Shown: positions 9,132 to 26,088, numbered from the stretch's first letter. The stretch: 64,000 nucleotides of DNA from an uncultured Melioribacteraceae bacterium (GCA_965370315.1 CBDUTO010000003.1:13527-77526); one strand, 5' to 3'. Numbers and translations are program-made. Notes: generated from the letters alone by a model not told the origin.

Positions 9132-9563
9132 TTACAACTTCACCACTTGAATAAAAAGGCCTAATCTTTTTAATGTTTCTGCAAATTTTACAAAATCAAC
9201 TGGTTTGGTGATATAAATATTACAGCCCAGTGAATAACATTTTTCAACTTCGCGTGGATCGTCAGTAGTTGTAAGCATCATTACAGGAAGGTTTTTAAAA
9301 TCGTCATCGCTTTTTATTTGCTCTAGCACCTCTACGCCATTCATTCTAGGCATGTTGATATCGAGCAATAGTAGATATGATTTATTTTTGTCTAACACCA
9401 TATTTTTGCCTTTGCCCGAAATAAAATCCCAGATCTCTTTACCATCTACAAAGCGGATCATATGATTGCATATTCCCGAATCCTTTAATCCTGCCATAAT
9501 AAGCTCGGCATGTCCATCATCATCTTCGGCTATCAGAATTGTAAGTTCTTTGTATTTTTCCAT
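9132..9563 (-). CDS. Single-domain CheY-like response regulator
   Basis: MEKYKELTILIAEDDDGHAELI...LLLLDINMPRMNGVEVLEQIK...PVMMLTTTDD...GCNIYITKP. I place the start at the internal ATG (9563-9561), because the 19 upstream codons of the track ORF overlap the end of the preceding kinase gene. Confidence 0.85.
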   Translation of the reverse strand: MEKYKELTILIAEDDDGHAELIMAGLKDSGICNHMIRFVDGKEIWDFISGKGKNMVLDKNKSYLLLLDINMPRMNGVEVLEQIKSDDDFKNLPVMMLTTTDDPREVEKCYSLGCNIYITKPVDFVKFAETLKRLGLFIQVVKL

Positions 9564-9585
9564 AATTATTTTCCTTCTTAAATAT

Positions 9586-10740
9586 TTAAAATTCCGTAAA
9601 TGAATGACTGTGTAGTTCAATATAAAAAACAGAGCCTTTATTTTCTTCTGACTCGGCCCATACTTTCCCTTTGTGTTTTTCGGCTATTCGTTTCACCAGG
9701 CTAAGGCCAATACCTTCACCAGTTTTGCCCGAGCGGATGCCTATGCGGTAAAAAACATCCCAAATTTTTTCCAGATGCTTTTGTGCAATTCCTTTGCCAG
9801 TATCCCTAATGGTGTATACAACCTTACTATACGATTTTTTTGCGTCCACAGTAATTTCCAAAACTCGCTCCGAATCAGAATATTTCAATGCATTGCTAAT
9901 TATATTTGCGAAAAGCTGATCCAATAATGCGGCATCGCCAAAACATTTAGGTAGTGGATTAATATATATTTCGCATTGGGCTTCTTTTATCTGAAAATCG
10001 AGGCTTTGAAGTATTTTCGCAAACAGTGCGTTCATGTCAATTTCCTGAATGTTCATTTCTACTCTGCCAGTGCGCGATAGCTGAAGGAGACCGTTGATTA
10101 GATTATCCATTTTTTCGATATTGCTATGGACAAAACTAAGTGTTTTGGGAATATCTTCATCTGTAATAATGCCAAGTTGGTGAAGTATTTCCGGTTCAAG
10201 CGCTTTATCGGCGAAAAGGTTTTTTATTGAATCGGCTTGTTTTTCCAGCCGTTGGCTAAATCCCTGTATGTTCACCAAAGGTGTTCTAAGGTCGTGAGAG
10301 GCAACATAAAGGTAATTTTCCATCTCCTTATTTTTTGCCAAAATCATTTCCTGTATCTGCATCATTTCACTAATATCTGTGGTAATGGTGGCAAATTTTC
10401 CGGCTTGGGGCGAAACAACCGATATCATTAAATGCTTATCCAAAGGGGGATAAAAGGTATTAAACTCATGGGGATCTCCTCCCAGCGCAACCTTGGCATA
10501 CTCCTCCAGGTATGGTGGTGGAGTGGTTTGATAGACTTCGGTTGCTAATTTACCAATTGCATCTTCTTTGCTAATTCCTGTAATTTCGGTAAATACCTTA
10601 TTGCAATCGATAATGCGGTAATCAATAGCATCACCGGCAGTGTTTAGCACTAACTCGTGCATAACTACCATTTCGGTGAGGGAGGTGAATAAGGCATTTA
10701 ATTTTTCTTCACTTTCGCGGAGTGCGTCTTCTGCCAGCTT
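9586..10740. repeat. Copy 1 of a ~1.15-kb segmental duplication (partner 15478-16632)
   Basis: The last ~385 codons of the two kinases align without gaps. I counted 15 differences in the last 115 residues. DNA near the stops is nearly identical by eye. Similarity begins at the stop codons and fades upstream of ...ESEEKLNALF. Confidence 0.85.
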
Positions 10741-13095
10741 ACGCTCAGTAATAACCATTCCCAAAACAAAAAAGCTTTCTATTTTGCCATCAACAATATG
10801 TGGGATATAATTAGTTTCAAAAATTATCAATTCATTATTCTTAGTATGAGTTGTTCTATTTTCAAAACTGACAAACTCGCCTGAAAGTGCTTTTTTCATT
10901 TGAGGCAAGGCACGATTAAAAGTCTCTTCACCAATTACATCAATCACATCTTTTCCAATAATTCCGCTTTCGAATGGACTTCTATCGTAATAGTACTGAT
11001 TAACAAAAGTGTATTTCAAATCTTTATCAATCTGACTGATTAAAACTGGCAAATTATTAGTTATAGTACGAAGTTGTTCTTCACTTTCTTTTAATTCTTC
11101 TTCAGCTAGTTTGCGCTCGGTGATGTCATTAAATGAAATAGTTACATATTTTATGTTGGTGTTTTCATCAAAAACAAGTGACGCATTTACATTTACCCAT
11201 GTGATATATTTTCTTTCAGGACGTTTGATACCAATAAAGTATTCTGAAAAAGATTTCAATAAACTAAGTGCCTTGTTTACCGGATATTCTTCAAGGGGCA
11301 TATCTGTACCATCGTTTCTTACAAATCTCCACTGAGGGTCAATGGCCTTTTTCCCTTTCATTTGTTCAGTACTAAGCCCTAGAATCTCGCTTGCCTTAGG
11401 GTTGCTTAGTATTATACTAGTATCCGGAGCGTGAAGAACAACCCCGGTTCCTAAACTCTCCATTAGATTAAGATATTTTTCGTTGCTTTCTTCGGCTTTA
11501 TCTTTGGCGATAAGTAGTTCTTCTTCAATTTTTTTACGTTCTGAAATATCCTGAGCGGCACCCCAAAGTCTGGTGATTTTCCCATTTTCGTCCTTTATCG
11601 CTTCCCCATGTGCCCACATCCACCCATTACTTCTATCTTTTCTTATGGTTTTTAATTCAATGTTATAAGGAGTTCCAGTTTCCCCGGTTCTTGCAATTGA
11701 GCTTGATAATAATTCCCAACTTTCTTGAGTAAACAATTTTTGACTATCGTTTAATAGTGGAGGTGGGAAAGCGGGATCAAAACCATACATTTTGTATAAT
11801 TCTTTAGACCAGTTAACTCTATTTGTTGCTAAATCTAAATTCCAACTACCTATATGAGCTAATTTCTGTGCCCTTTCCATTTCTATTTCATTTCTCTCCG
11901 CCTTTTCTTTGGCATTAAGTAATTCGTTGGTGCGCTCTTTAACTTTTGATTCCAATACCTTATTTAATTTTTGTTTGCTTTTATATCTATTGTAAATTAA
12001 AAGCACTAATACAATTACCAGAATAGTAATGATAATAAGCAGATATAAAACATTTTGCTGTTTGTTAATTGTTCCTGTTTTTTCTTCCAGAATTTTTGTT
12101 TGTGATAAAATTTTATCCTTCTGATCTTGTAATAATTCGATTCCCTTATTAAGTTCTTCTTTCTGCTTCTCTGATTCAAGATACTGATCATCCAAAATAT
12201 TTTGCTGCTCTTGAATCTTTTGATCTTGTGTGCTAATATCTATTTGCTTCTCCTCGAGTAATTGTGACTGATTAGAAAGTGTTTTTTGCTGATCCTGAAT
12301 TTTTAGTGTTTGATTGTTAAGACTATCATTCTGGGCTAGCATTTGTCTGTCAAAACTATCTTTCTGGACTTGCATCTCCTGTGTCTTGCTTGTGATGGTA
12401 TGCTCGAGCCGTTTCAAATCGGTTTCAAGATTATCTGTATGTTTTTGAAGACTTCGCAAGCTTTGCTGACCTTCGCGATATAACGCTGCAACATCAATTT
12501 CAGTGCCTCCGAAAAGAACTAGATCATCCGTAAAACGAAGATTCTGGTTAATTATATTAGCCTTGTTTATTTCAAAATGAAGAGTTCCCTTTCCGCTCTC
12601 AATAAAATTAATCATGATCAATCGTTTATCCTGAAAACCATCGCTTATTAGGAGAATGTTTTTCCCTTCAATTTCGTCAAAAAGTTCAGTGATAGAATTC
12701 TCTTGGTCCTTTGTAATATAAATTAACTGTACACCATCAAAATTATCCAATGAAAGTTTTGATACTATATTAATAGGTTTTCCCTTGAGTGTTTTGGTGT
12801 TAGATAATATTTTCATCTCATTAAAAACATCTTTATCCTCACCTAGTATTAGAAATTGAAATTCGTTAATTGCCTCTTCGTTTTGCCACTCAATATTATT
12901 GGCAAAGTTGTAGATATAGGCTGTAATAGCTTCCTGACGTTCTAATGTTTGTGCGTTAATATTTGACGACTGCACAATAGAAAAGATAATTGCTATTTTG
13001 AAAACTTGAATTAATGGCTTCATAATTATTCCAATAAAATCCGTTATTTTATTCAATGATATGTTTTCGTAGTTATATGTACTAATTCTAAACAT
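9586..13095 (-). CDS. Sensor histidine kinase: signal peptide, periplasmic YfiR/DUF4154-like domain, Q-rich coiled coil, one TM, four PAS, HisKA, HATPase_c
   Basis: 1169-aa ORF; the start may instead be the ATG at 13023 (MKPLIQVFKIAIIFSIVQSSNINAQ looks like a signal peptide). DUF4154-like motifs: YIYNFANNIEWQ, FQFLILGEDKD, ILLISDG, LHFEINKANIINQNLRF. TM VLYLLIIITILVIVLVLLIY. H-box LYVASHDLRTPLVNIQGF; DTGKGI and GEGIGLSLV boxes. Confidence 0.85.
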   Translation of the reverse strand: MFRISTYNYENISLNKITDFIGIIMKPLIQVFKIAIIFSIVQSSNINAQTLERQEAITAYIYNFANNIEWQNEEAINEFQFLILGEDKDVFNEMKILSNTKTLKGKPINIVSKLSLDNFDGVQLIYITKDQENSITELFDEIEGKNILLISDGFQDKRLIMINFIESGKGTLHFEINKANIINQNLRFTDDLVLFGGTEIDVAALYREGQQSLRSLQKHTDNLETDLKRLEHTITSKTQEMQVQKDSFDRQMLAQNDSLNNQTLKIQDQQKTLSNQSQLLEEKQIDISTQDQKIQEQQNILDDQYLESEKQKEELNKGIELLQDQKDKILSQTKILEEKTGTINKQQNVLYLLIIITILVIVLVLLIYNRYKSKQKLNKVLESKVKERTNELLNAKEKAERNEIEMERAQKLAHIGSWNLDLATNRVNWSKELYKMYGFDPAFPPPLLNDSQKLFTQESWELLSSSIARTGETGTPYNIELKTIRKDRSNGWMWAHGEAIKDENGKITRLWGAAQDISERKKIEEELLIAKDKAEESNEKYLNLMESLGTGVVLHAPDTSIILSNPKASEILGLSTEQMKGKKAIDPQWRFVRNDGTDMPLEEYPVNKALSLLKSFSEYFIGIKRPERKYITWVNVNASLVFDENTNIKYVTISFNDITERKLAEEELKESEEQLRTITNNLPVLISQIDKDLKYTFVNQYYYDRSPFESGIIGKDVIDVIGEETFNRALPQMKKALSGEFVSFENRTTHTKNNELIIFETNYIPHIVDGKIESFFVLGMVITERKLAEDALRESEEKLNALFTSLTEMVVMHELVLNTAGDAIDYRIIDCNKVFTEITGISKEDAIGKLATEVYQTTPPPYLEEYAKVALGGDPHEFNTFYPPLDKHLMISVVSPQAGKFATITTDISEMMQIQEMILAKNKEMENYLYVASHDLRTPLVNIQGFSQRLEKQADSIKNLFADKALEPEILHQLGIITDEDIPKTLSFVHSNIEKMDNLINGLLQLSRTGRVEMNIQEIDMNALFAKILQSLDFQIKEAQCEIYINPLPKCFGDAALLDQLFANIISNALKYSDSERVLEITVDAKKSYSKVVYTIRDTGKGIAQKHLEKIWDVFYRIGIRSGKTGEGIGLSLVKRIAEKHKGKVWAESEENKGSVFYIELHSHSFTEF

Positions 13096-13108
13096 TTACA
13101 AATTCTCT

Positions 13109-15238
13109 TTAAATTCCTATTATTAAACTAGCATAAATAGAACGGCCACTACGTCCTGGAATAGTGTTGATGTTTCTTCTGATATATTCAGGATAGTATA
13201 TTTTCTCATTGAGCAGGTTTTTAGCATACATTTCTATTGTTATATCAGGATTATTCTCTGGGCTAAGGCCCATAAATTTTCTAATATTCAGGCTTATGTT
13301 AGCAGTAAGAAAATTATAAGATTTAGCATGTGGATTTGCATTAGGATATTTAGCACCAATATCATCTCCTTCACCATAATATGAGTTAAAAATTCCGAGT
13401 AGGAATCCTTTTGAAGGGTATTCATAAACAATTCCTGTTTTAAACATACTATTAGGCATTCCCATTGTTTGCTCAGAGCTTCCATCCCCAACCCAAAATT
13501 TACTGTAGGATAAGGAAAGACTTAAGTTTCTGAATAAATTGAATTTACCTTCGAGTTCAACGCCTTGTGTTTTCAATGAGCCTTTGTTGATGTATGTCGG
13601 AACTGCAAGTTTTTTTCCAACTTCGCCAACTGTAGCGTATACCAGACTATCGGAAGGCAAAGAACGAACTATTAAATTTTTTTCTTGATTTTGAAAAATA
13701 GTAGCCGTTAACAGAAATTTTTTATGTTTATAACTTATCTGAATTTCAGAAGTTTGAATTTTCTCTGGTTCTAATTCTGACCCTCCACCCGAAAGTGACG
13801 GCGGTGTATAAGAATTTATTATTTCAGAAATATTATACCGCTCTAATAAAGAGGGTGAGCGAAATGCTTGTCCATAAATAAGTTTTAAATAAAGTTTATT
13901 TTGCCAATGCATTACAACATTTACTCTTGGCACAAAACTCCATACAGGTGAAGCTGTTTTGTTAGCTTGTCCGCCAAGATCAATATGAATAAAGTTATAG
14001 GGTTCAAAACTGAATTGAAAATAAGCACTATACCAGTTCTCTGATTTTCCATCAGTTATCATAAATGGAGTCGTGTTAGTTTGTGTGTCAAAATCTGTAA
14101 ATCTACTCCCATCTGTTGTTTTGCTGTAAGAAGTATTATCCAGAAAGAAACGATTAAATACAGTACCGCCGATCATGCGTATTTTTTCTGAAAATTTTAG
14201 AGCTAAAGAAGCTTCAAATAAAAATCCATGTCCATCTTGGGTGCTGAGAATAGGGTTAAATAATGAATAAGAGGGTTGATCCCGTAAGGTTTTATTAAAA
14301 TCTGCGTGAATGTTTAATGCCCATTTATTATTCCATTTTTTATCATAAGCTAGACTTGCAAAATACTGAGAAAGATCAATTCTATTACCAAGTGGATTAC
14401 CCCATCTTGCACCACCACTCATATATTCAAAATTTGACTGAAGCCCTAAAAAATGTGCTTTAAATCCTTTGTATTTTGCTTCAAGCAATAGCGATTTGTC
14501 AGTATGATCCATTTGCATTGTTCTTGGTGGATTTACAACTGTTTCAACATCATCAATAAACTCCATGTCATTTTCACCTCTTGCTGTAAAATCCCAACCA
14601 TTGGTCTTATTCCAAACCACATTAGCTTTCAGACTTATTTTGTTTATTTTTTTTGATATCATTAAAGATGTTTGCCATGAATCAAAGCTACCATAGCGTA
14701 TTCTCGTAGAAGCCTCCAATTTTTCAGTTGCATCTTTGGTGATTATATGAATCACTGCGGTATAAGCATTTGAACCATAAAGTACAGAACCTGTACCTCT
14801 GATAATTTCAATTTTCTTGATGCTTTCAAGAGGAAAAATTTTGTAAATAAGACTGTTCGCACCATTGTTTACGCTTTCACGCAAAGGACTACCATTCAGT
14901 AAAATCAGTAGATGAGTATTGTAATGCGGTGTTACAGTTCCTCTTACTGCAAGTATACCATCAGGGAAAACAATTGTGCTTAATCCGTACATACTGGTAA
15001 CTCTGTCCAGCACTTCCAGAAGATTTAATGCTCCGTAAGATTTAATTTCTTTTGCCGTAATAATATTCATACTGGCTGGAGCCATAAAAAATTGTTCTTC
15101 ACTTTTTGAAGGAGTTGTAACTTTAATATTCCAGAGTGAGTCTAATGGAATAGAATAGATGTCCGTTATTTCTTGCGCCTTAACAATTTGAAGGATAGAG
15201 AAAACGCAAGTAACCAGAATGGTTATTCTAGTTCTCAT
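13109..15238 (-). CDS. TonB-dependent outer-membrane receptor
   Basis: 709 aa. Signal peptide, then plug motifs (MNIITAKEIKSYGALNLLEVLDRV, LLNGSPL, IKKIEIIRGTGSVLYGSNAYTAVIHIITK). A long alternating beta-strand region rich in Y/G/N/S follows. Confidence 0.85.
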   Translation of the reverse strand: MRTRITILVTCVFSILQIVKAQEITDIYSIPLDSLWNIKVTTPSKSEEQFFMAPASMNIITAKEIKSYGALNLLEVLDRVTSMYGLSTIVFPDGILAVRGTVTPHYNTHLLILLNGSPLRESVNNGANSLIYKIFPLESIKKIEIIRGTGSVLYGSNAYTAVIHIITKDATEKLEASTRIRYGSFDSWQTSLMISKKINKISLKANVVWNKTNGWDFTARGENDMEFIDDVETVVNPPRTMQMDHTDKSLLLEAKYKGFKAHFLGLQSNFEYMSGGARWGNPLGNRIDLSQYFASLAYDKKWNNKWALNIHADFNKTLRDQPSYSLFNPILSTQDGHGFLFEASLALKFSEKIRMIGGTVFNRFFLDNTSYSKTTDGSRFTDFDTQTNTTPFMITDGKSENWYSAYFQFSFEPYNFIHIDLGGQANKTASPVWSFVPRVNVVMHWQNKLYLKLIYGQAFRSPSLLERYNISEIINSYTPPSLSGGGSELEPEKIQTSEIQISYKHKKFLLTATIFQNQEKNLIVRSLPSDSLVYATVGEVGKKLAVPTYINKGSLKTQGVELEGKFNLFRNLSLSLSYSKFWVGDGSSEQTMGMPNSMFKTGIVYEYPSKGFLLGIFNSYYGEGDDIGAKYPNANPHAKSYNFLTANISLNIRKFMGLSPENNPDITIEMYAKNLLNEKIYYPEYIRRNINTIPGRSGRSIYASLIIGI

Positions 15239-15440
15239 GATTAATTCCTTTTAATGTGTTGTGCTTTATTTCATATTCGTGTTGGAAGCTACAAAGTTCT
15301 TCCGGTGTAGGATTGTCCGCTTGAAATACTTTGAGAATTACCGAAGTATTATCATGTTTTTGTACTCCCCTATATACCAGCGAACTTGAACTTTCACATA
15401 AGGTTACAGTTATTATATAATTTCGAATTCTCTTTTCCAT
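15228..15440 (-). pseudogene. 70-codon relic resembling the N-terminus of a Ser/Thr-protein-kinase-like domain
   Basis: MEKRIRNYIITVTLCESSSSLVYRGVQKHDNTSVILKVFQADNPTPEELCSFQHEYEI. It matches the start of the kinase-like domain of large kinase-AAA-GAF-histidine-kinase sensors (pattern ..S.VYRG.....N..VILK.....PTPEEL..F..EYEI). It stops after ~70 aa and overlaps the TonB-receptor start by 11 nt. Confidence 0.5.
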
Positions 15441-15477
15441 GATTTTTTTCCTTTTATATATTTCCTCTTTTAGCTTA

Positions 15478-16632
15478 TTAGAGTTCAGTAAATGAACGAT
15501 TGTGTAGTTCAATATGAAAAACAGAGCCTTTATTTTCTTCTGACTCGGTCCATACTTTCCCTTTGTGTTTTTCGGCTATTCGTTTCACCAGGCTAAGGCC
15601 AATACCTTCGCCGGTTTTGACTGAGCGTGGGTCGATGCGGTAAAAGACATCCCAAATTTTATCCAGATGCTTTTGTGCAATTCCTTTGCCTGTATCCCTA
15701 ATGGTGTATACAACTCTATTGTATGTATTTTTTGCGTTCACCGTAATTTCCAGTGCTCGTTCCGAATCAGAATATTTCAATGCATTGCTAATTATATTTG
15801 CAAAAAGCTGATCCAATAATGCGGCATCACCATAACATCCGGGTAGTGGATTAATATGAATTTCGCATTGGGCTTCTTTAATCTGAAAATCGAACCTTTG
15901 AATTATATTTGCAAACAGCGCGTTCATGTCAATTTTCTGAATGTTTATTTCTACTCTGCCTGTGCGCGATAGCTGAAGGAGACCATTGATAAGGGAATCC
16001 ATTTTTTCGATATTGCTATGGACAAAACTGAGTGTTTTGGGAATATCTTCATCTGTAATATTGCCAAGTTGATGAAGTATTTCCGGTTCAAGCGTTTTAT
16101 CGGCGAAAAGGTTTTTTATTGAATCGGCTTGTTTTTTCAACTGCTGGCTAAAACCCTGTATGTTCACCAAAGGCGTTCTAAGGTCGTGAGAGGTAACATA
16201 AAGGTAATTTTCCATCTCCTTATTTTTTGCCATAATTATTTCCTGTATCTGCATCATGTCGCTAATATCGGTGGTAATGGTGGCAAATTTTCCGGCTTGG
16301 GGCGAAACAACCGATATCAGTAAATGTTTATCCAAAGGAGGAAAAAAGTCAGTAAACTCATAGGGATCTCCTCCCAGTGCAACCTTGGCAAACTCCTCCA
16401 TGTAAGGTGGCGGATCGGTTTGATACACTTTGCTTGCTAATTTACCAATTGCATCTTCTTTGCTGATTCCTGTAAGTTCGGTAAATACTTTATTGCAATC
16501 GATAATTCGGTAATCGATAGCTTCACCAGCAGCGTTTTGAACCAGCTCGTTCATCACCACCATTTCGGTCAGAGAATTGAATAAGGCATTTAATTTTTCT
16601 TCGCTTTCTTTTAAGGCCTCTTCTGCTTTATC
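15478..16632. repeat. Copy 2 of the ~1.15-kb segmental duplication (partner 9586-10740)
   Basis: See copy 1. Confidence 0.85.
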
Positions 16633-17340
16633 TCTCTGGTTTTCTCTGGTTTTTATTTGCTCAAGCATATTATTAAAACTGTTGTATAAAACACCTATCT
16701 CATCAGTACTTCTACTTTCCAGACGTATTGTATAATCATCCTCCAAAGAAATTTTCTTTGCCGTGTCGGCCAGTGCAAGAATGGGCTGTGAGATTATTCG
16801 CTCTAATCTAAATGCAATAAAAAAAGCTATTAGTATCAATACAATTCCAATAAAGCCCTTTGAGATAATATTCGATCTTAAATCTTTATATAATTCAGCA
16901 GTGGATACTCTTAAATATATAGTACCTCTTATTTCTTCATTAAATTTGATTTTTCTAAAAATATGCAACCAATCATCTTCAAAAAAACTACTAATATCAC
17001 CAATTGGTAATTCAGGAATATTGATTAATTCTGTTCGATTATAGGAGGCAAAAACATGACCCTCCAAATCAAAGACATATCCATTATAAATAGTTGGAAT
17101 TGTTTCCAGTTTTGATAAATTAACATTTGCCTCATCATTATATCCAAAATCAAGAGGAGTGATACAATACTCGCTTACTAATTTTGCATTCAGCAATGAT
17201 TCACTAATCAGTTTATCTTTAGATGCTTCATGAGTTTTAATCAAATCTATCGTAAACCCAATACTTAACGACAGAATAGTTACCGATAAGATGATAAAAA
17301 TTAGTTTGTTTTTTATGGAAAGACTTTGAATTATTTTCAA
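15478..17340 (-). CDS. Sensor histidine kinase: TM, ~140-aa periplasmic loop, TM, HAMP, PAS, HisKA, HATPase_c
   Basis: 620-aa ORF. The track start is a TTG at 17340-17338 that overlaps the TGA of the upstream DUF4154 gene, and no in-frame ATG is nearby. H-box LYVTSHDLRTPLVNIQGF. The C-terminal ~385 aa are paralogous to 9586-10740. Confidence 0.9.
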   Translation of the reverse strand: MKIIQSLSIKNKLIFIILSVTILSLSIGFTIDLIKTHEASKDKLISESLLNAKLVSEYCITPLDFGYNDEANVNLSKLETIPTIYNGYVFDLEGHVFASYNRTELINIPELPIGDISSFFEDDWLHIFRKIKFNEEIRGTIYLRVSTAELYKDLRSNIISKGFIGIVLILIAFFIAFRLERIISQPILALADTAKKISLEDDYTIRLESRSTDEIGVLYNSFNNMLEQIKTRENQRDKAEEALKESEEKLNALFNSLTEMVVMNELVQNAAGEAIDYRIIDCNKVFTELTGISKEDAIGKLASKVYQTDPPPYMEEFAKVALGGDPYEFTDFFPPLDKHLLISVVSPQAGKFATITTDISDMMQIQEIIMAKNKEMENYLYVTSHDLRTPLVNIQGFSQQLKKQADSIKNLFADKTLEPEILHQLGNITDEDIPKTLSFVHSNIEKMDSLINGLLQLSRTGRVEINIQKIDMNALFANIIQRFDFQIKEAQCEIHINPLPGCYGDAALLDQLFANIISNALKYSDSERALEITVNAKNTYNRVVYTIRDTGKGIAQKHLDKIWDVFYRIDPRSVKTGEGIGLSLVKRIAEKHKGKVWTESEENKGSVFHIELHNRSFTEL

Positions 17341-17957
17341 TGTGTTTCTCCTTTCCGATAACCTACTATTTTAGCAATATTTCTCAAACGATAATCAACA
17401 TTAAATCCTTCATTAGTAATTGATGATTCATTTAATTCAAATCGAATTTTGTTTTTAAGTATGTAAAAGTTGATGTGAACACCATTTTCTCCAAAATTTT
17501 TGGTGTCTCCTAAAGTGAGTACTGATTTTCCATGTGTATTGGATAGTATATCGGCAAGTCTATTTTTTTCGGCACTTGAGATAAACAAAATATGACATTG
17601 ACCAATCTGATTGGGTTCTGTATAGTAACGGATTTCTACATTCTTATTTTTAATTTTATTTTTTTCTTTTTGATATGTATCTTCAAGAAGAGTTCCAAAT
17701 GGATTTTCACCAATAACACCAATAACGAAAGGTTCTGATTTATCGTTAATTTCAGACTGCTCAGGCCATTCAATATATTCAGAGATCTTTAAAAGCAAAA
17801 ATACCTTCACATCATATTCGCTTGTCTGACCATACATACTAATTGGCAATAAATAAATACTCATAAAGAGGAGCAAAACAATTGCCCACTTACAACGAAT
17901 CAAAATCGATGTTTCTTTAAAGTGATTAATTTGCATTTTATCTACCATAGTTAACAC
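17337..17957 (-). CDS. Stand-alone secreted YfiR/HmsC-like (DUF4154) protein
   Basis: 206 aa with an N-terminal hydrophobic segment. Motifs: FLLLKISEYIEWPEQ, FVIGVIGENPFG, ILFISSAEKNRL, VLTLGD, GVHINFYILKNKIRFELNESSITNEGF. These are the same motif series as the N-terminal domain of 9586-13095. Confidence 0.7.
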   Translation of the reverse strand: MLTMVDKMQINHFKETSILIRCKWAIVLLLFMSIYLLPISMYGQTSEYDVKVFLLLKISEYIEWPEQSEINDKSEPFVIGVIGENPFGTLLEDTYQKEKNKIKNKNVEIRYYTEPNQIGQCHILFISSAEKNRLADILSNTHGKSVLTLGDTKNFGENGVHINFYILKNKIRFELNESSITNEGFNVDYRLRNIAKIVGYRKGETH

Positions 17958-17972
17958 TCATTTATAGCATAA

Positions 17973-20333
17973 TTAAAAATTAATTTTAAATTTCATTCCA
18001 ATAACAATAGGCTCTTTTACAAATCCGCTCTGTCTGGGATATTGGCGGAGATTCCCCGGTTCCCAATATTGTATAACATAACGCACATTATTTACGCTTA
18101 TAATATTCATTGCAAATAATGATAACTCCATATTGAATGATTCAGAATCCACTTTCCAATTAACTGAAATATTTGACGTAAATGAATTTTCTCCATATCC
18201 GTGATCGTGTAAAGCATTGTATATCGCATTCATTTCATCTTTCGATTCCTGAGCTCCATAATTATCATGAACATCTTTAAAATTCATTAATAGATCTTCT
18301 TGTTGATAATCAAGACTCATTCTACAATCGAGATGAAGATTTAGATTATAGGGTAATTTTTGATTATAATAAAATTTGATAGAATGTACCGGCAGATTGT
18401 TAATTCTATTTTGTCCATAATCAGAAATATATATTTTATCAATATTTTCTGATCCTGTAGCAAGATTCACATCGACATATGCTTCTAGTTCAACTTCAGG
18501 TGTCCAGTTCAATTGATTGATAAATGAATAGCTTCCACTAAAATTGAAATTAGTATTTGTGTATTTAATTTCAGCATCGAATCCTGCTAATTTAAAAGTA
18601 CCAACTAATCCGGATTGATTTGTTGGAAGCCATGCAATCTGATCTATTGTATTATAATATCCAGAAAAATTAAAATTTAGATTTTTATTTTGCATTCTTC
18701 CATAAATAACTTCAAATCCCCTTAAAATCTCAGGGTCAGAAGAAGTTCCTGAAATGATATACTCTGAATACAAGTCACGAAATGTAGGAAGTCTTACAGA
18801 TTGTTGATAAATGACTTTAATTACATTTTTCTTGTTTAATTTATAGATCCAAGCTAAGCGGGGAGAAATTGCCCATTTTGAATATTTGTGTTTATCTGCT
18901 CGCCCAGAAATTAAGATTGTATTTTTGTCCGTAACATCAATATTTGCTTCAAAAAACCCTGACACAAAATTTGTCCTTAGTTGATCTTCAATCAGGCTGC
19001 AAAAATTACTTCCATATTGTTGATAAAATCCAGATGTAGTATCATAAACAGCAAATCTTATTGGAGCCTGGAACCCCAGAATAAAAGAATTGTCATCCAT
19101 TCCCCACTCTGGACCATAACTTTTATATACATATTCTCCACCTACTGCAAATCTATACTTTTCATTAAGATCAAAATTAAGCTGACTTTTTACAAACAAA
19201 TCACTTTCGGAAAATGAGTTGTTTCGTTGAGTAATATGATCAGATGGTTTATTAGTGCCCTGATAAAATGAAATATCCCTATGACTCTGTGACGAATATC
19301 CAAGTGAAGATTTGAGAGTTACAAATTGAGAGAAATGATGCTTGTTTTCAAAAACAGCAGTGAACTGTTTGTATAATAAGCCTGGAAAATCAGACCCATC
19401 GGCCGTTTCACTCTTTTGCTGTTGCTTAGTAAAATTAGATGATGTATATCTTGTCCAGAGACGAAATTCATTAAAAAACTCAACATCTAGTTGAAGTTTA
19501 ATTTCAGGTTTATCCCAATAATTTTCATAGAAGTTAGGAGCAGGAGTGCCGAGTCCCTTATTTCCCCATTCCGGAGACATAAAACCATAGCCATAACCAT
19601 GTGCCCTGTCAACATAGAAAAATTTTGGATTTTTTTGCCCTTTTGATAATGTGTAACTTCCTCGGATGAAAGCCTTAACATTCTCTGTATTATATCCATA
19701 GCTTGCACTTCCAATTCCATATCTATATCCCAAATTCCACTCCGTTGAGATAGTAAGCCCTTCAGAAGAGACGGCATTTTTTGTTTTAATATTTATGACA
19801 CCTCCAATTGCACCGGGACCATATGTTACCGATCCAGGACCACGGATTATTTCAATTGTTTCAATATCACCTAAATCTTTATTCAGCATTTCTGTTAATG
19901 GCTGCCCCATATATGCATCATTCATTCTTACACCATTTACAATAAGCATGTATGAAGAATTCATATCTCCAGATACTCCTCTAATGCCTATTCTTGGACC
20001 CAGCCAATGATTTACAAAAGTTGCAGAGGGCACATAAATTTCAATTAGATCAAACAGGTTTCTCGCCGAACTTACTGCAATATCTTCTTTTGTGATTACT
20101 GTAAATGAGACAGGGATATCAGAACGCTTCATTTCTGTAATAGTACCTGTAAAAACTTTAACTTCCATTAATTCTTCGAGAGACATATTAAAAAGTTTAT
20201 TGTATTTTTTCTCCTTTGTATCTTGAGCAATTATATGAATTGATTGTAACAAAAGAAAAACAACAAACAATAAAACAGGCATTCTTTCCAATACAGACAA
20301 AAGCAATTTTGATTTGTTTTGATTATTATTCAT
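17973..20333 (-). CDS. TonB-dependent outer-membrane receptor
   Basis: 786 aa. Signal peptide, MSLEELMEVKVFTG lead-in, plug (FTVITKEDIAVSSARNLFDLIEIYVP, NGVRMND, IETIEIIRGPGSVTYGPGAIGGVINIKTK), barrel ending ...KFKINF. A GGTGG Shine-Dalgarno-like sequence lies upstream of the ATG. Confidence 0.85.
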   Translation of the reverse strand: MNNNQNKSKLLLSVLERMPVLLFVVFLLLQSIHIIAQDTKEKKYNKLFNMSLEELMEVKVFTGTITEMKRSDIPVSFTVITKEDIAVSSARNLFDLIEIYVPSATFVNHWLGPRIGIRGVSGDMNSSYMLIVNGVRMNDAYMGQPLTEMLNKDLGDIETIEIIRGPGSVTYGPGAIGGVINIKTKNAVSSEGLTISTEWNLGYRYGIGSASYGYNTENVKAFIRGSYTLSKGQKNPKFFYVDRAHGYGYGFMSPEWGNKGLGTPAPNFYENYWDKPEIKLQLDVEFFNEFRLWTRYTSSNFTKQQQKSETADGSDFPGLLYKQFTAVFENKHHFSQFVTLKSSLGYSSQSHRDISFYQGTNKPSDHITQRNNSFSESDLFVKSQLNFDLNEKYRFAVGGEYVYKSYGPEWGMDDNSFILGFQAPIRFAVYDTTSGFYQQYGSNFCSLIEDQLRTNFVSGFFEANIDVTDKNTILISGRADKHKYSKWAISPRLAWIYKLNKKNVIKVIYQQSVRLPTFRDLYSEYIISGTSSDPEILRGFEVIYGRMQNKNLNFNFSGYYNTIDQIAWLPTNQSGLVGTFKLAGFDAEIKYTNTNFNFSGSYSFINQLNWTPEVELEAYVDVNLATGSENIDKIYISDYGQNRINNLPVHSIKFYYNQKLPYNLNLHLDCRMSLDYQQEDLLMNFKDVHDNYGAQESKDEMNAIYNALHDHGYGENSFTSNISVNWKVDSESFNMELSLFAMNIISVNNVRYVIQYWEPGNLRQYPRQSGFVKEPIVIGMKFKINF

Positions 20334-20490
20334 TTTTTACCACCTTAAATATTTCAGGTTTTACAGAACTGAACAAAAGGCATTTCAATTAAAACGTCAG
20401 CTTTCAAAGCTTGTATTCAGACTGCTATTACGAGAATAGATTCAGTTTTCTCATTTTTTCTGATTATGCCAAAAATTTCTTCTACTCGAT

Positions 20491-21663
20491 CTAATTAAAC
20501 TCATACTCAACTTTATTAAGTTTATACTTTTCTGGTTGTTTATAAATATCTAAGATCAAATTGCGATCAAAACTTTTTCTTACCTCTTCCCATTTGCTAC
20601 TTCCAGGTACTTTGTTTAATTCTTTTAGAAATCTGAATTCTTTATAGAGCAAACTATTAATTTGCGTATCATCTTCACTTGAAATAATAGAGTACTTTGA
20701 ATTATATCTGAGAATATCCTTCAGTGCCAAGTCGGCAATTTCTGCCGCAGTTAATATGCTTTTTTCTCCGCTCAACCTTTCAATTTCTATTAAATTAAAA
20801 TCAGATGCGGCAAGCAAATTAATTCTATCAGCTTTTAACCAGTTAATTGCTCTGATAACAGCAGCAAGAATATGATTAACAACCTCATAATTTTTAGCTG
20901 CAAATTCTTTTAAAAAATATAAATATCCAGTGGATATTCTTTTAAACGTTATAAAATTTTTTGGATAGAGTTTTTGAGATGAAGCCACAATTGGTTCCCA
21001 TGCAGAGAAGAGGTCAATCTCATTATTATGTAATGCATTTGCCATAGATGTAACATCAAGGGGAATTAAACTCACATCGTTTTCTTTAATTCCTTCACCT
21101 TGCAATAAATCTAAAAGAAAATAATGTGATATCGATCCTAAAGGATACCCAATTCGCTTCCCCTCCAAATCATTTGTTAGCATCGGCTTTCTTGAAACAA
21201 TAGAAACATTACCCTTCTGTAAGAGTACTGGAATTAGAATATCAAAATTTGAGGATGCGGATAATGCAGGCATATCCCCACCAACACCGGCAACCAGTTC
21301 TTTTTGTTTCAGAAAACAATTAAGATCTGCACCTTTTAAATATGGAAAATATGCGATTCTCTTTCCTAATAGTCTCAGTTCTTGCTTTAGAATTTTATCC
21401 CGTTTTATAACTTCAAAGATAATTCCGGTAGGTAAGTATAGAGGTTGGAAACCAATATTTATTGTTGAGTCATTATTATAAATGTATTGGGAATAAATAG
21501 GATGATTTTGTATATCCGGTTGTTGAATTAGAGAACTCACTTCCGTTTTATCATTCACTGATAAAAAAAAGACCATTGCTGTAGTTCCAATCACAATAAG
21601 TAATAGAACAATGTTTCTAATTTTAATTTTGGGAAGAAGCAATTTATTATTGTTAAAAATCAT
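20491..21663 (-). CDS. Membrane-anchored periplasmic-binding-protein-like protein (NMT1/SsuA-TauA-type fold suspected)
   Basis: 390 aa with an N-terminal TM (IVLLLIVIGTTAMVFFLSV). The body has the typical two-lobe binding-protein pattern (IGFQPLYLPTG..., GDMPALSAS, LEGKRIGYPLGSISHYFLLDLL, IDLFSAWEPIVAS). The family assignment is tentative. Confidence 0.5.
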   Translation of the reverse strand: MIFNNNKLLLPKIKIRNIVLLLIVIGTTAMVFFLSVNDKTEVSSLIQQPDIQNHPIYSQYIYNNDSTINIGFQPLYLPTGIIFEVIKRDKILKQELRLLGKRIAYFPYLKGADLNCFLKQKELVAGVGGDMPALSASSNFDILIPVLLQKGNVSIVSRKPMLTNDLEGKRIGYPLGSISHYFLLDLLQGEGIKENDVSLIPLDVTSMANALHNNEIDLFSAWEPIVASSQKLYPKNFITFKRISTGYLYFLKEFAAKNYEVVNHILAAVIRAINWLKADRINLLAASDFNLIEIERLSGEKSILTAAEIADLALKDILRYNSKYSIISSEDDTQINSLLYKEFRFLKELNKVPGSSKWEEVRKSFDRNLILDIYKQPEKYKLNKVEYEFN

Positions 21664-21701
21664 GTTTCCTCTATATTCTCAAATTTATTTATCTAAATCA
21701 A

Positions 21702-22526
21702 TCACCTTTTCTTATAAATCTTACACTCTTTATTAGTTCTATTAAATTTATTCTTATATTTTTCAGGTAGCTCTTCTGCTTCGCCTAAAACTAGATACCC
21801 ACCTGGATTTAATGCACGGTACAATTTTTTATATATAATTTCTTGAAACTCGGTATTGAAATAAATTAATAGATTACGACAGAGAATAATATCAAAGCTG
21901 CCATATATGCTTTCAGGAGGAAAATACGATTTTGTATCGAGCATATCAAACTCTGAAAAACTGACCATCTCCTTTATTTCAGATTTCAATTGAAACACAT
22001 TTACTCTTGTATTAAAATATTTTTCTAATAAGTGGTATTTTATACTCTTAATACTTTCAAAAGAATAGATACCTTCTGCTGCTGATTTTAGTGTTTTCTT
22101 ATCAATATCCGTTGCAATTATTGTTGTAATTAAATTCAAGCCTTCCTTTTTAATTATTTCATTTATAAGAATCGCTATAGAATATGGTTCTTCTCCAGCA
22201 GCACAACCTGCTGACCAAACACGCAAGGGAGAATTATTTGATTTAATTTTTTCTATGATCAACTTTGGTAATATATAATCAGCAATAAATTCAAAATTGA
22301 ATGTATTTCTAAAAAACCTGCTCACATTTATTGTAAGTACATCAATTAGCTTATCTAGCTCCAATTCGTTTTGTTCAAGATACTTGTGGTACTCATTTAT
22401 ATCTGAAGAAATAGTTGCAAAAATTCTTTTATCAATACGTCTATTAATCATGGCAGTGCGGTTCCCAGAAAAATCAAGTCCACGTTTTAATTTAAGATAT
22501 TGTAATATGTTAGTTGCATTAGTCAT
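21702..22526 (-). CDS. cheR: CheR-type protein-glutamate O-methyltransferase
   Basis: 274 aa. CheR_N-like segment (LDFSGNRTAMINRRIDKRI..., INVSRFFRN). SAM-binding core LRVWSAGCAAGEEPYSIAILI, ATDID, FDIILCRNLLIYFN. Confidence 0.85.
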   Translation of the reverse strand: MTNATNILQYLKLKRGLDFSGNRTAMINRRIDKRIFATISSDINEYHKYLEQNELELDKLIDVLTINVSRFFRNTFNFEFIADYILPKLIIEKIKSNNSPLRVWSAGCAAGEEPYSIAILINEIIKKEGLNLITTIIATDIDKKTLKSAAEGIYSFESIKSIKYHLLEKYFNTRVNVFQLKSEIKEMVSFSEFDMLDTKSYFPPESIYGSFDIILCRNLLIYFNTEFQEIIYKKLYRALNPGGYLVLGEAEELPEKYKNKFNRTNKECKIYKKR

Positions 22527-22571
22527 ATAAATCAGTTAGATATTGATGCCAAATTATTTTTCACTTACTCC

Positions 22572-24368
22572 TCACTCTGGAACATTATATTTGGGATGTT
22601 CATTTTGATTGTCTAATAAATTATTTATCTCATTTTTTAATTCTATCATTCTATTTTCTCTATTTACAAAGAATTTATTCATTTTATCTAACTCACTAAT
22701 TTTTTCTTTTAGTTTTTCAATTGCATTATGGCGTTCTGTGATATTACGTCTATTCACAACGAATCCCATAATTTTGTTATTAAATCCGTAATATGGATAA
22801 TAGGTAGTCTCCATATAGCACCGTCCCTTAGCTGGAAAATCAAACCACCCTTGATAGTTGATTTGGTCACCAGATATACAACGCTCACCATTATTCTTGA
22901 TAGTAGAATTAAAGAATTCTTCTCCAAAAACATTAGCCACAGTATTTCCAATCAACTCTTCACGAGTCAATTTGAATGCCTCCATATATGCTTTATTTAC
23001 TGCAAGATATCTGAATTGTTTATCCAAAAGCGCAAGCATATCGTTAGAGCTAGATACAATATACTCATATTGACATAGTACTTCTTCCGATTCTTTATAC
23101 TCTGTAATATCAATAATATTTCCAACAACTTTATGTAGTTTACCATCTTTATAAATGGGTCGGCCTGAGGTACGGACCCACATTTGTTTCTTTTTAGCAT
23201 TAGTAAATCTTAGTTCTAAATTATATGGGATCCCTTTACTCACACACTCTTCAAATGCTTTGGTAATAGTTGGAATATCATCTTTATGATAATATTTGAA
23301 TCCATCTTGGGCATCTTTAATAGGTGATTTGGGCAGGGCATGAATACGATAAGTTTCACCAGTCCAAATTATTTGTCCATTGGAAATTCTATATTCCCAT
23401 CCACCAACTCTAGATAGTTTTTGAGTCTCATTTAGCAAATATTCACTCTTTCTAAGTGCTTTTTGATCTAAAACATGTTCAGTAATATCACGGTTATTTC
23501 CTCTTCTTCCCACCCAACCATCACTCTTATCATTCACTAGACTACAGTGATGTGCTATCCATTTTTCTTCGCCAGAGCGTGTTATGATAGGAAATTCTGT
23601 CTTAAAGATTGGATCCTTCCAATTCCTTTCATTTTTGTAATGGCTAGTAACTTCCTCCCTAAAATCCTTTCTTATTATTTTAAAAAATAACTCAGGTTTT
23701 TTTTTGAATTCTTCAACTGTGTATCCGGTGATTCTCTCTACGGATGGAGATATGTATAAATACTCTCCAGTAGGACTAATCAAGTATTCCCAATCATGAG
23801 TATACTCAGCTAACAGTTTGTATTTTTGTTTGCTCGCTTTTAACTCTTGTTCCATTTTCTTACGATTTGTAATATCTTGAAACACACAATAGATTTTTTC
23901 GACACTCCCGTCCGGATAATAGCCGATAGATCCTTCAAATGAGATATCCAAATCACTTCCATCTTTGTGCTTTATCTTAAAAAGTATATCAGATACATAA
24001 CCACGTTTTTTAAATTCTAGGAAGTGTTTTTCGAAATGAGGTTTCCAATCTGGATGTAAAAGATCTACAAACCGCTTTCCAATAACCTCCTCACGATTGT
24101 AACCAAGCGTTCTTATCCATGCTGGGTTTATTTCAATCAAACAACCATCGACATTGAGAGATTGATAGGACAAAGGCGCATTATTGAATAGTGCTGATAA
24201 TTTCTCTTTGCTTTCTTCTAAAACATCGGATATTTTTTTTTGTTTATTTAATTTAGAATTCAACAAATGGTTGTTCTTTTCCAAATCAGATATTATACTT
24301 TTTAAATTATTATTTTCGTTTTGAAGGAAGAAGAACCCTGGATTAGCCTCTTTCATATTGTGCTCCAT
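22572..24368 (-). CDS. Multi-PAS sensor protein (about four PAS domains), no output domain
   Basis: 598 aa. N-terminal coiled coil, repeated PAS/PAC units (LSALFNNAPLSYQSL..., ..DITNRKKMEQEL.., ..DITEHVLDQKAL.., ..DITEYKESEE.., ..NITERHNAIEKL..), C-terminal coiled coil. No H-box or other output motif seen. Confidence 0.8.
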   Translation of the reverse strand: MEHNMKEANPGFFFLQNENNNLKSIISDLEKNNHLLNSKLNKQKKISDVLEESKEKLSALFNNAPLSYQSLNVDGCLIEINPAWIRTLGYNREEVIGKRFVDLLHPDWKPHFEKHFLEFKKRGYVSDILFKIKHKDGSDLDISFEGSIGYYPDGSVEKIYCVFQDITNRKKMEQELKASKQKYKLLAEYTHDWEYLISPTGEYLYISPSVERITGYTVEEFKKKPELFFKIIRKDFREEVTSHYKNERNWKDPIFKTEFPIITRSGEEKWIAHHCSLVNDKSDGWVGRRGNNRDITEHVLDQKALRKSEYLLNETQKLSRVGGWEYRISNGQIIWTGETYRIHALPKSPIKDAQDGFKYYHKDDIPTITKAFEECVSKGIPYNLELRFTNAKKKQMWVRTSGRPIYKDGKLHKVVGNIIDITEYKESEEVLCQYEYIVSSSNDMLALLDKQFRYLAVNKAYMEAFKLTREELIGNTVANVFGEEFFNSTIKNNGERCISGDQINYQGWFDFPAKGRCYMETTYYPYYGFNNKIMGFVVNRRNITERHNAIEKLKEKISELDKMNKFFVNRENRMIELKNEINNLLDNQNEHPKYNVPE

Positions 24369-24473
24369 TTGTTATGCTACTAAGTATTGCAGAACTAGGA
24401 AGTATACATTGATACTTAATATAATAGTTACATGTTACAATGTAAAGAGAAAGCGGTTCTTGAGAGAAACAGC

Positions 24474-24799
24474 TGCCACTCTTTATTTGCTCATCCACAA
24501 AAAGAAACCATCAAACTCCATTAATTACTGCATTAATATTTCATAGTTTTACTTTATCCTAAAACAAACTATTTCCCAAAAAATGATAGAATCAATCATC
24601 ACCTTTGTATTGAGTCTTTGCAAATCAAGAACTCAGCTAGGATTAGAAAAAATGGTTTTAAGAAAATTTGTTTTAAATGTCATTCCCATCAAAATAATTC
24701 TAAATCCAAGTCGATATTCTTAACTGAGGAACAACTTAATTAAAACTCAGTAGAGATCTTTGTTGTAATTCAACACTTATGAGGTTTTGGATAGGGACA
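24474..24799 (+). mobile_element. MITE-like internal-deletion derivative (326 bp) of the IS at 54886-56220
   Basis: The left end tgccactctttatttgctcatccaca aligns with the IS left end tgtccctgttcatttgctcatccaca. It keeps ~30 degenerate transposase N-terminal codons (MIESIITFVLSLCKSRTQL...). It joins directly to a right end ...gtagagatctttgttgtaattcaacacttatgaggttttggatagggaca. Confidence 0.65.
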
Positions 24800-24918
24800 A
24801 CTTATTATCAAATAAGATTAGTTTAAATAGTTATATTCACATAGCATCATTATAGAATAAGAAATATTTAATTATAGTATACTAATTAATATTGACAACT
24901 TAAAAACTTTGTGGACTT

Positions 24919-26088
24919 ATGTTAAACATTGCATTATTTGGCCCTCCCGGAGCCGGGAAAGGAACACAGTCAGAATTCCTTTTAAAAATATTTAATCTCT
25001 TTTACATTTCAACTGGTGATTCTTTACGTAAAGAAATAGCCGAAAAAACTAAATTAGGCTTGGAAGCACAAAGCATTATTGCATCCGGAGGGTTGGTTTC
25101 TGATGAAATTATTGTTCAGATTATAGAAAAAACTATTACAGATAATCCAAATGCCAACGGATTTTTATTTGATGGATTTCCCCGCACATATGTTCAGGCG
25201 TATATTCTAGAAGGTTTAATGATAAAATTAAATACTTCGCTTAATTGTTTGATCAACATTAATGTTGATGAGGAAGAATCTGTTTCTCGTCTTTTGAACA
25301 GAGGAAAATCTTCCGGACGTTCTGATGATAATGAAACTGTGATTAGAAATCGACTTGTTGAATATAATGTAAAAACTCGTCCAGTAATGCAGTTTTACAA
25401 AGACAGAAAAGTATATTTTGAAGTTGAAGGTTACGACTCAATTGAAAATGTACATAGAAGGATAATAAATATTTTACAGGACGAACTCAGTAAATCACTT
25501 TATAATATTGTTCTTTTCGGTTATCCTGGCTGCGGGCGGGGTTCGCAGGGTCAAGCACTTGCTGAAAAATTTGATCTTGAATATATTGCCACTGGCAAAA
25601 TGCTTGAAGATGAAATTAAAGATAATACCGAAGTTGGGATGAAAATATTAGAACTATATGAAAATGGTCAACTTGTGCCCGATGAAATTGTTGTACAATT
25701 GATTGAGAAAAAACTTGCGAACTCAAAAGGTGTTAAGGGGTATATTTTCAAGGGCTTTCCGAGAACTCTTGTACAATCTTACATATTAGACGGGCTTTTA
25801 AAAAAGCATGGTTCTAAAATATCAAAGGTAATAGAGTTTGAAGTCCCAATACTTGAACTTATCAATAGGCTTGATGCACGGAGCAAGACTGATAAATGTA
25901 TGCCATACGATAGCAATACTGCTAAAATTGTTAAGCGTCTACAGGAACATGAAAATAAAACCATTCCAGTAATTGAAAAATATGAACAGCTGCATGATTT
26001 TAAAAAAATTGACGGCATGGGTACATTCGAAGAAGTATTTGAAAGAACTGTAGTTGATATTGAAAACGGGATGAAACATATGAGATAA
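24919..26088 (+). CDS. adk: Fused tandem adenylate kinase (two short-LID adenylate-kinase domains in one 389-aa protein)
   Basis: Domain 1: FGPPGAGKGTQ, ISTGDSLRKEI, DGFPRT, NRGKSSGRSDDNETVIRNRL. Domain 2: FGYPGCGRGSQ, IATGKMLEDEI, KGFPRT, LDARSKTDKCMPYDSN. Confidence 0.85.
   Translation: MLNIALFGPPGAGKGTQSEFLLKIFNLFYISTGDSLRKEIAEKTKLGLEAQSIIASGGLVSDEIIVQIIEKTITDNPNANGFLFDGFPRTYVQAYILEGLMIKLNTSLNCLININVDEEESVSRLLNRGKSSGRSDDNETVIRNRLVEYNVKTRPVMQFYKDRKVYFEVEGYDSIENVHRRIINILQDELSKSLYNIVLFGYPGCGRGSQGQALAEKFDLEYIATGKMLEDEIKDNTEVGMKILELYENGQLVPDEIVVQLIEKKLANSKGVKGYIFKGFPRTLVQSYILDGLLKKHGSKISKVIEFEVPILELINRLDARSKTDKCMPYDSNTAKIVKRLQEHENKTIPVIEKYEQLHDFKKIDGMGTFEEVFERTVVDIENGMKHMR

Follow-up and report, generated by a model that had tools for sequence, protein, structure and literature searches.

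The conserved partner of an orphan CheR-type protein-glutamate methyltransferase, encoded in a 64,000-nucleotide stretch of DNA from an uncultured Melioribacteraceae bacterium (GCA_965370315.1 CBDUTO010000003.1:13527-77526; hereafter the window), is a 1395-aa hybrid sensor kinase and not the multi-PAS protein encoded beside it. We consider it probable that this CheR tunes the kinase by methylating glutamates in a heptad array, in the manner of RsbM and RsbK. The initial annotation of the window had described the CheR gene as lying between genes for an output-less multi-PAS protein and a membrane-anchored binding-protein-like protein, and had proposed that the enzyme modifies the PAS protein or one of the nearby kinases, giving methylation-based adaptation to a two-component pathway. 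All coordinates refer to the whole window, which belongs to an 84.6-kb contig in an assembly of 4.4 Mb (217 contigs, 97% complete). Domains of the window proteins were called with Pfam and, for some, NCBIfam (Table 1).

In every contig with enough flanking sequence, the gene after an orthologue of the window CheR (47-80% identity), or after the PAS genes next to it, encodes a full-length orthologue of the hybrid kinase (47-59% identity). This was seen at loci L021, L022, L024, L025, L029, L038, L118, L119, L120 and L123. At some of these loci, one or two PAS proteins are encoded between CheR and the kinase. The kinase gene is followed by a gene beginning with an orthologous receiver domain, and the receiver of the window's REC-HisKA_3 kinase is 44-55% identical to that of the post-kinase gene in L021, L024, L025, L029 and L038. 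The window holds the same module genes, with the kinase downstream of CheR, but with about 16 kb of other sensory genes between the two. The sensor half of the kinase was used as query for a reverse search, in which orthologues with a readable segment ahead of the H-box were counted. CheR was encoded upstream on the same strand in 42 of the 47 readable orthologues, often less than 100 bp away, and CheR-kinase gaps of 1-4 kb hold PAS proteins. The search as a whole recovered orthologues from Bacteroidota, Chlorobiota, Marinimicrobia, Cloacimonadota, Desulfobacterota, Aminicenantes, Atribacterota, Planctomycetota, Lentisphaerota and other phyla. The association of the two genes is thereby established.

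Eight genomes carry a kinase orthologue without CheR, and none of the eight has a CheR of the module clade elsewhere. A sample of 400 genomes of the phylum gave one further orthologue, so the module is patchy in the phylum. A separate pairing of a CheR with a kinase was seen outside the main clade, at a Nitrospiria locus (L039:10001-13562) where a distant CheR (35% identity) is directly followed by a 929-aa HAMP-GAF-coil kinase with the heptads EELQSQT EELQSQS EELQAQS; it is an independent case.

Between its GAF and HisKA domains, the window kinase has a coil of the heptads SEELQEQ SEELQSQ TEELQSQ TEELQQT SEELQEQ NLELDMQ, the register of which is unbroken from the array into the H-box (His at about residue 615). 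Among the orthologues the consensus of the array is [S/T/A]-[E/D]-E-L-Q-x-Q, and the coils differ in length by exact multiples of seven residues. A six-frame scan established that an array of the form [S/T]-E-E-L-Q-x-Q occurs once in the 4.4-Mb genome, in the hybrid kinase. A coiled coil had been proposed as the target of CheR from the outset, and this part of the proposal still seems likely; its placing of the target in the PAS protein or the cassette kinases was not supported, as no Glu-Glu heptad array is present in these or in any protein of the cluster other than the hybrid kinase.

A CheR-alignment search for related loci gave mostly generic CheRs, and this set served as a control and not as orthologues. 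The control set for arrays comprised 100 CheR loci, of which those lacking CheA, CheW and MCP (methyl-accepting chemotaxis protein) genes were counted as being without che. Strict arrays were found at 27 of 59 loci without che genes, compared to 1 of 41 loci with them (Fisher p = 6e-7). The arrays at che-less control loci lie mostly inside CheR-fusion open reading frames, directly after the CheR domain, and the CheR-fusion proteins of the control set carry EELQSTN/EELETTN arrays. Among the kinase orthologues, Glu-Glu heptads are fewer where CheR is missing: seven CheR-less orthologues had 0, 0, 1, 1, 1, 2 and 3, whereas the median among the 44 CheR-linked orthologues is 3 (Mann-Whitney p = 0.0026, 7 vs 44). 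This trend supports the tie between CheR and the array, although the CheR-less cases are few. At two loci (L157:7974-10397 and L165:7986-10346), the dCache-HAMP-GAF sensor directly precedes another type of kinase core, which has the H-box SFAYSVSHDL and no Glu-Glu heptad array; both genomes are without any CheR, and in both kinases a natural exchange of domains has taken away the candidate methylation segment.

The conserved motifs of CheR enzymes mark, as in the Salmonella CheR structure, the S-adenosylmethionine (SAM) site and the catalytic residues. In the window CheR, the FFR, GEEPYS, ATDID and CRNLLIYF motifs align with those of the solved CheRs 5FTW, 5XLY and 1BC5, and the enzyme looks active, its SAM-binding and conserved CheR motifs being intact. 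It scores 129 bits against the NCBIfam CheR equivalog, below the cut-off of 435, and its nearest relatives, 53-80% identical to it, are members of a large family with a typical length of about 275 aa. The 14 module CheRs group as a single clade (support 100/99) when 102 CheRs are placed in a maximum-likelihood tree, apart from the canonical CheR of the same genome. The CheR-fusion proteins form a second clade (100/97) in this tree, the deeper branching of which was left unsettled. The RsbM-like enzymes, 27-29% identical to the window CheR, have a clade of their own.

The module clade of CheR is independent of chemoreceptors. The MCP signalling domain was absent from 11 of 24 genomes with a CheR-kinase pair, and in 12 of the 24 none scored above the Pfam cut-off; MCPs therefore cannot be substrates on which the clade depends, and CheR must have others. 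Among the MCP-free carriers are the cultured Maribellus maritimus and a Prolixibacteraceae genome in the form of a complete 4.9-Mb chromosome. No che genes were found at the module loci. The CheB catalytic domain was likewise found at none of 15 module loci. Since no esterase travels with the module, fast reversible adaptation is unsupported; rather than adapting quickly as in chemotaxis, the mark would more probably be set slowly or constitutively. The assignment of CheR to a two-component pathway in the initial annotation is supported, and adaptation in the reversible sense is not.

The closest studied counterpart is RsbK of Bacillus cereus, a CHASE3-HAMP-GAF-S-helix-HK-CA-REC protein (PMC4574943), the signalling helix (S-helix) of which is methylated by the orphan CheR-type protein RsbM according to 2012 work as cited there. 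Methylation of RsbK in vitro with 14C-SAM has been shown, RsbM works without a cognate esterase, and 127 RsbK-like kinases were counted in 10 phyla (PMC4574943). A Bacillales locus (L208) contains STAS, anti-sigma kinase, sigma factor, ferritin and REC-PP2C genes, then convergent genes for an 896-aa CHASE3-HAMP-GAF-HisKA-HATPase-REC kinase and a 285-aa CheR; its domain content and sigB-cluster gene order identify it as an RsbK/RsbM-type locus. Residues 300-960 of the window kinase align with the RsbK of this locus over 714 residues (30.7% identity, E 7.5e-69), which establishes an RsbK-type homology, and the S-helix of the latter (TEELQVQ SEELQTQ AEELQMQ AEELRTT) is made of the same heptad unit.

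The two systems share a hybrid kinase of HAMP-GAF-S-helix-HisKA-HATPase-REC architecture, x-E-E-L-Q-x-Q heptads in the S-helix just before DHp, and a dedicated orphan CheR-type methyltransferase without a cognate esterase. They differ in the sensor (dCache_1 in the window kinase, CHASE3 in RsbK), in the number of receivers (four compared to one) and in output, where the window has a REC-HisKA_3 kinase and a LuxR-type regulator instead of the PP2C regulator RsbY and sigma-B; no PP2C or sigma-B genes were found among the genes downstream of the window kinase. In addition, CheR of the window family is encoded upstream of the kinase whereas RsbM is encoded directly downstream, the two methyltransferases belong to separate clades, and the window module adds accessory PAS proteins with a conserved tail.

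Other described systems are also comparable. In the MAC proteins of Wuichet and Zhulin, CheB/CheR are either fused to the protein (MAC1) or separately encoded (MAC2), and a preprint calls these proteins experimentally uncharacterised. As is proposed for the window module, a kinase has its own methyl-accepting coiled coil and its CheR is fused or separate; however, MAC2 is described with both CheB and CheR, and the window module has CheR only, a comparison made by description. Also compared by description was the cfcABCDE system of Pseudomonas putida, in which a CheR/CheB pair without a role in chemotaxis accompanies the gene for CfcA, a multisensor hybrid kinase (PMC4951495); it resembles the window module in joining a hybrid kinase to a non-chemotaxis CheR, but it has CheB and feeds a diguanylate cyclase regulator (PMC4951495). 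Canonical CheRs (Salmonella 1AF7/1BC5, Bacillus subtilis 5FTW) are two-domain enzymes with the same SAM-binding and CheR motifs, and they act on sites spaced by heptads in a Glu-rich coiled coil, antiparallel or parallel, such as we propose here. They differ in that the window module has neither an MCP, CheA or CheW partner nor CheB, and in that the proposed substrate helix runs on into a DHp domain. Literature searches with our own terms gave nothing, either on the heptad sequence or on kinases as targets of CheR. The idea of a CheR acting on a sensor kinase is not new, being known from RsbK/RsbM and the MAC proteins. On the basis of these comparisons, the window module is most likely RsbK/RsbM-type and MAC2-like, with formal MAC membership only a candidate assignment.

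Whether methyl groups are transferred, where exactly, and what this does to the kinase are matters of inference, which we draw as follows. Using SAM, CheR would methyl-esterify glutamates of the [S/T]-E-E-L-Q-x-Q array (residues 555-585), which forms the putative signalling helix linking the GAF domain to the helix of the DHp domain that accepts phosphate. Neutralisation of these charges would alter coiled-coil packing, and the altered packing may set the basal activity or the gain of the kinase, perhaps via the receiver domains as has been proposed for RsbK. The dCache domain would sense a periplasmic ligand, and the signal would leave through the kinase's four receivers, reaching the REC-HisKA_3 kinase and LuxR-type regulator encoded downstream.

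Several observations weigh against this mechanism. CheR and the kinase are 16 kb apart in this genome, and gaps of 157-325 bp between the intervening genes suggest separate transcription units. The low identity of the window CheR to the RsbM-like enzymes and the unsettled relation of the module, RsbM and fused clades mean that recruitment could be convergent. Five CheR-linked orthologues have no Glu-Glu pair and only single x-E-L heptads, so the exact site rule is not clear-cut, and the heptads fit the classical E-E-x-x-A-S/T receptor consensus only partly.

The tail mentioned above is carried by two proteins in this genome, the 598-aa PAS protein and the 1110-aa REC-PAS-GAF-PAS protein, and by no others. 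Its motif is [FV][FV][VI]-x-R-E-x-x-[IM]-x-x-L-x-x-x-[IV]-x-x-L, and it occurs in two types, type A (ERT-x-EL-x-x-KNKELD-x-AMKVFVGRE) and type B (FFVNRENRMIELKNEINNLL...PKY). Among the fetched CheR loci through L123, the motif gave 12 matches in 7 of 13 module loci and no match in 87 other CheR loci (1.4 Mb); with the later kinase-orthologue loci included, 43 distinct proteins carry it. The linker ahead of the tail is homologous to the ERT-type S-helix by which ordinary kinases connect PAS to HisKA (hhalign 97%, E 3e-11), and this likeness ends where the H-box would start, the tail replacing the kinase core. A degenerate DHp helix of the hybrid kinase was considered as the identity of the tail and was unsupported (hhalign 1.5%), there was no match to the kinase coil either, and Pfam and NCBIfam scans of tail and coil returned coiled-coil noise only. 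Between CheR and the kinase at L022:8865-9023 and also at L023:3900-4058, a called gene of 52 codons encodes nearly the tail only (…KIFVGRELKIRDLEKRIRALTGKA), which suggests that the tail helix is a functional unit by itself. The description of the 598-aa protein as output-less was correct in that its Pfam domains are all PAS, but it overlooked this conserved, module-specific C-terminal helix motif. The suggestion that the protein might align with the PAS part of CheB-CheR-PAS fusions, from which it could have been split off, was rejected after BLASTP against 25 CheR-fusion proteins gave no match at E <= 1e-3.

With their motif found in this module only, the PAS proteins that bear the tail are an apparently new accessory element. 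They are accessory because about half of the related modules lack such a protein, a count that also speaks against the adjacent PAS protein as the target named in the initial annotation. These PAS and REC-PAS proteins might constitute an unrecognised class of enzyme-less sensors in which a terminal helix of about 22 residues (KVFVGRE-x-x-I-x-x-L... or FFVNRENRMIELKNEINNLL...PKY, after a canonical ERT signalling helix) docks on the acidic, putatively methyl-accepting kinase coil or on CheR, a proposal we regard as rather doubtful. If it were true, a single kinase tuned by methylation would collect the inputs of several cytoplasmic PAS proteins, an arrangement that would be the two-component counterpart of the receptor teams and tethering peptides of chemotaxis.

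CheR could instead methylate, or be recruited by, one or both of these tail-bearing proteins, with the conserved Arg-Glu of the tail as the modified or docking site. The PAS gene is 45 bp from CheR with no terminator-like site between them, tail proteins stand between CheR and kinase at other loci, and the motif is confined to module loci and present only twice in this genome. However, most adjacent CheR-kinase pairs have no tail protein at all, and because CheR abuts the kinase in many such modules the tail cannot be a universal substrate. Furthermore, the tail has no Glu-Glu or heptad array, and its methylation would be without precedent. This alternative is improbable. Equally improbable is that CheR acts elsewhere in the pathway, for example on a receiver of the kinase or on the downstream REC-kinase, or serves as a SAM-sensing partner without methyl transfer. 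The module also conserves a REC gene behind the kinase, and the receiver domain of RsbK interacts with the methylated helix (PMC4574943), but the catalytic motifs of CheR are intact, the heptad array tracks the presence of CheR, and the known precedent puts methylation on the S-helix.

The genome encodes seven MCPs, six CheW-domain proteins, one CheB and two CheRs, with a single CheA/CheB set. No MCP, CheA, CheW or CheB is encoded on the window's 84.6-kb contig, all matches to PF00015, PF01584 and PF01339 being on other contigs, so the absence first noted for the neighbourhood of CheR extends to the whole contig. On contig C1 at about 75.7-85.2 kb (L017), a che cluster encodes CheB, CheA, a weakly CheZ-like protein, two small open reading frames that are probably CheY, a 308-aa CheR, a 461-aa HEAT-repeat protein situated between cheR and cheW, CheW and an MCP. 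Because this cluster includes its own CheR, the window CheR is a true second copy and its identity as a displaced chemotaxis CheR was rejected; the chemotaxis system proved complete, which supports the earlier assignment of the window CheR to a two-component pathway. A second CheA pathway lacking a CheR was also rejected, as the large CheW-domain protein of contig C91 is a REC-NMT1_2-CheW protein and not a CheA. This 651-aa protein (C91:9562-11517, minus strand, L122), which has receiver, NMT1_2 binding-protein-like and CheW domains, is a CheV-like scaffold with an inserted solute-binding fold, and a gene for a DnaJ-domain protein adjoins it. Multiple CheRs with receptor specificity are present in Pseudomonas, and with seven MCPs and one CheA/CheB set the window enzyme could be a second chemotaxis CheR for some of these receptors, its location being incidental, but its clade apart from the che-cluster CheRs, its strict synteny with the kinase, the MCP-free module genomes and the CheR owned by the che cluster make this very unlikely.

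Around CheR, the three open reading frames of the initial annotation and their gaps were confirmed exactly, all on the minus strand, with 45 bp between the PAS gene and CheR and 38 bp between CheR and the gene for the 390-aa protein. The latter was correctly described as a membrane-anchored binding-protein-like protein, having an N-terminal hydrophobic anchor (IVLLLIVIGTTAMVFFL, read from sequence) ahead of an NMT1/SsuA fold, and the TonB receptor said to follow it was recovered by Pfam. A scan for intrinsic terminators at 17900-25000 gave no terminator-like site, and such a scan is weak evidence for this phylum. The block at 9132-20333 sits between CheR and its partner kinase in this lineage, and no such block separates the two at other module loci; L018, the closest relative, is the only other locus where an orthologue of the 390-aa protein (83% identity) adjoins CheR. 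Both this binding protein and the TonB cassettes were inserted in a lineage-specific manner and are common to L018 only, and they lie outside the conserved module.

Beyond the left end of the window, the REC-HisKA_3 kinase gene is followed by a gene for a REC-LuxR/GerE regulator, then by genes for a small multihaem cytochrome c and a REC protein; the same stretch (C3:1-13300, L204) also holds three more PAS/GAF kinases and a hemerythrin, and this contig is unusually rich in sensory genes. On the other side, directly upstream of the promoter region of the PAS gene, one of the few plus-strand genes (24919-26088) encodes a 389-aa protein with two tandem adenylate-kinase units (Pfam ADK, two stretches).

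Table 1. Features of the CheR-kinase locus and its surroundings, in window coordinates.
Feature	Position	Strand	Basis and remarks
REC-HisKA_3-HATPase kinase, 5' part, 426 aa on contig	2-1024	-	Pfam
Hybrid sensor kinase, 1395 aa, dCache_1-HAMP-GAF-coil-HisKA-HATPase-4xREC	1255-5442	-	Pfam
Heptad array EELQEQS EELQSQT EELQSQT EELQQTS EEL	3688-3780	-	Kinase residues 555-585
REC-PAS-GAF-PAS protein, 1110 aa	5768-9100	-	Pfam; immediately upstream of hybrid kinase
Type-A tail motif of REC-PAS-GAF-PAS protein (KVFVGRELKIRELEKRI), after an ERT-type S-helix	5783-5839	-	Genome-wide regex scan
Two TonB-receptor/YfiR-like/kinase cassettes and REC protein	9132-20333	-	Pfam
TonB-dependent receptor	17973-20333		Pfam; after 390-aa gene
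Membrane-anchored SsuA/NMT1-like binding protein, 390 aa	20491-21663	-	Pfam 3.9e-12; NCBIfam SsuA_fam
CheR-type protein-glutamate methyltransferase, 274 aa	21702-22526	-	Pfam CheR_N + CheR, 1.7e-53
Multi-PAS protein, 598 aa, ending in type-B tail FFVNRENRMIELKNEINNLL...PKYNVPE	22572-24368	-	Pfam: PAS_9, PAS_3, PAS_4, nothing but PAS
C-terminal tail motif of 598-aa PAS protein	22617-22673	-	Genome-wide regex scan

CheR-type methylation of sensor kinases is represented by one studied case, RsbK/RsbM, and by the bioinformatic class of the MAC proteins. The window locus is part of a large, well-defined and unstudied branch, which is spread over Bacteroidota, Ignavibacteria, Chlorobiota, Desulfobacterota, Cloacimonadota, Marinimicrobia, Aminicenantes and other phyla. 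Its members offer simple test systems, consisting of one enzyme, one kinase fragment and a readable row of candidate sites, and the tail-bearing PAS proteins are a possible new route for signals into a kinase. For annotation, genes such as the window CheR should not be labelled as chemotaxis genes.

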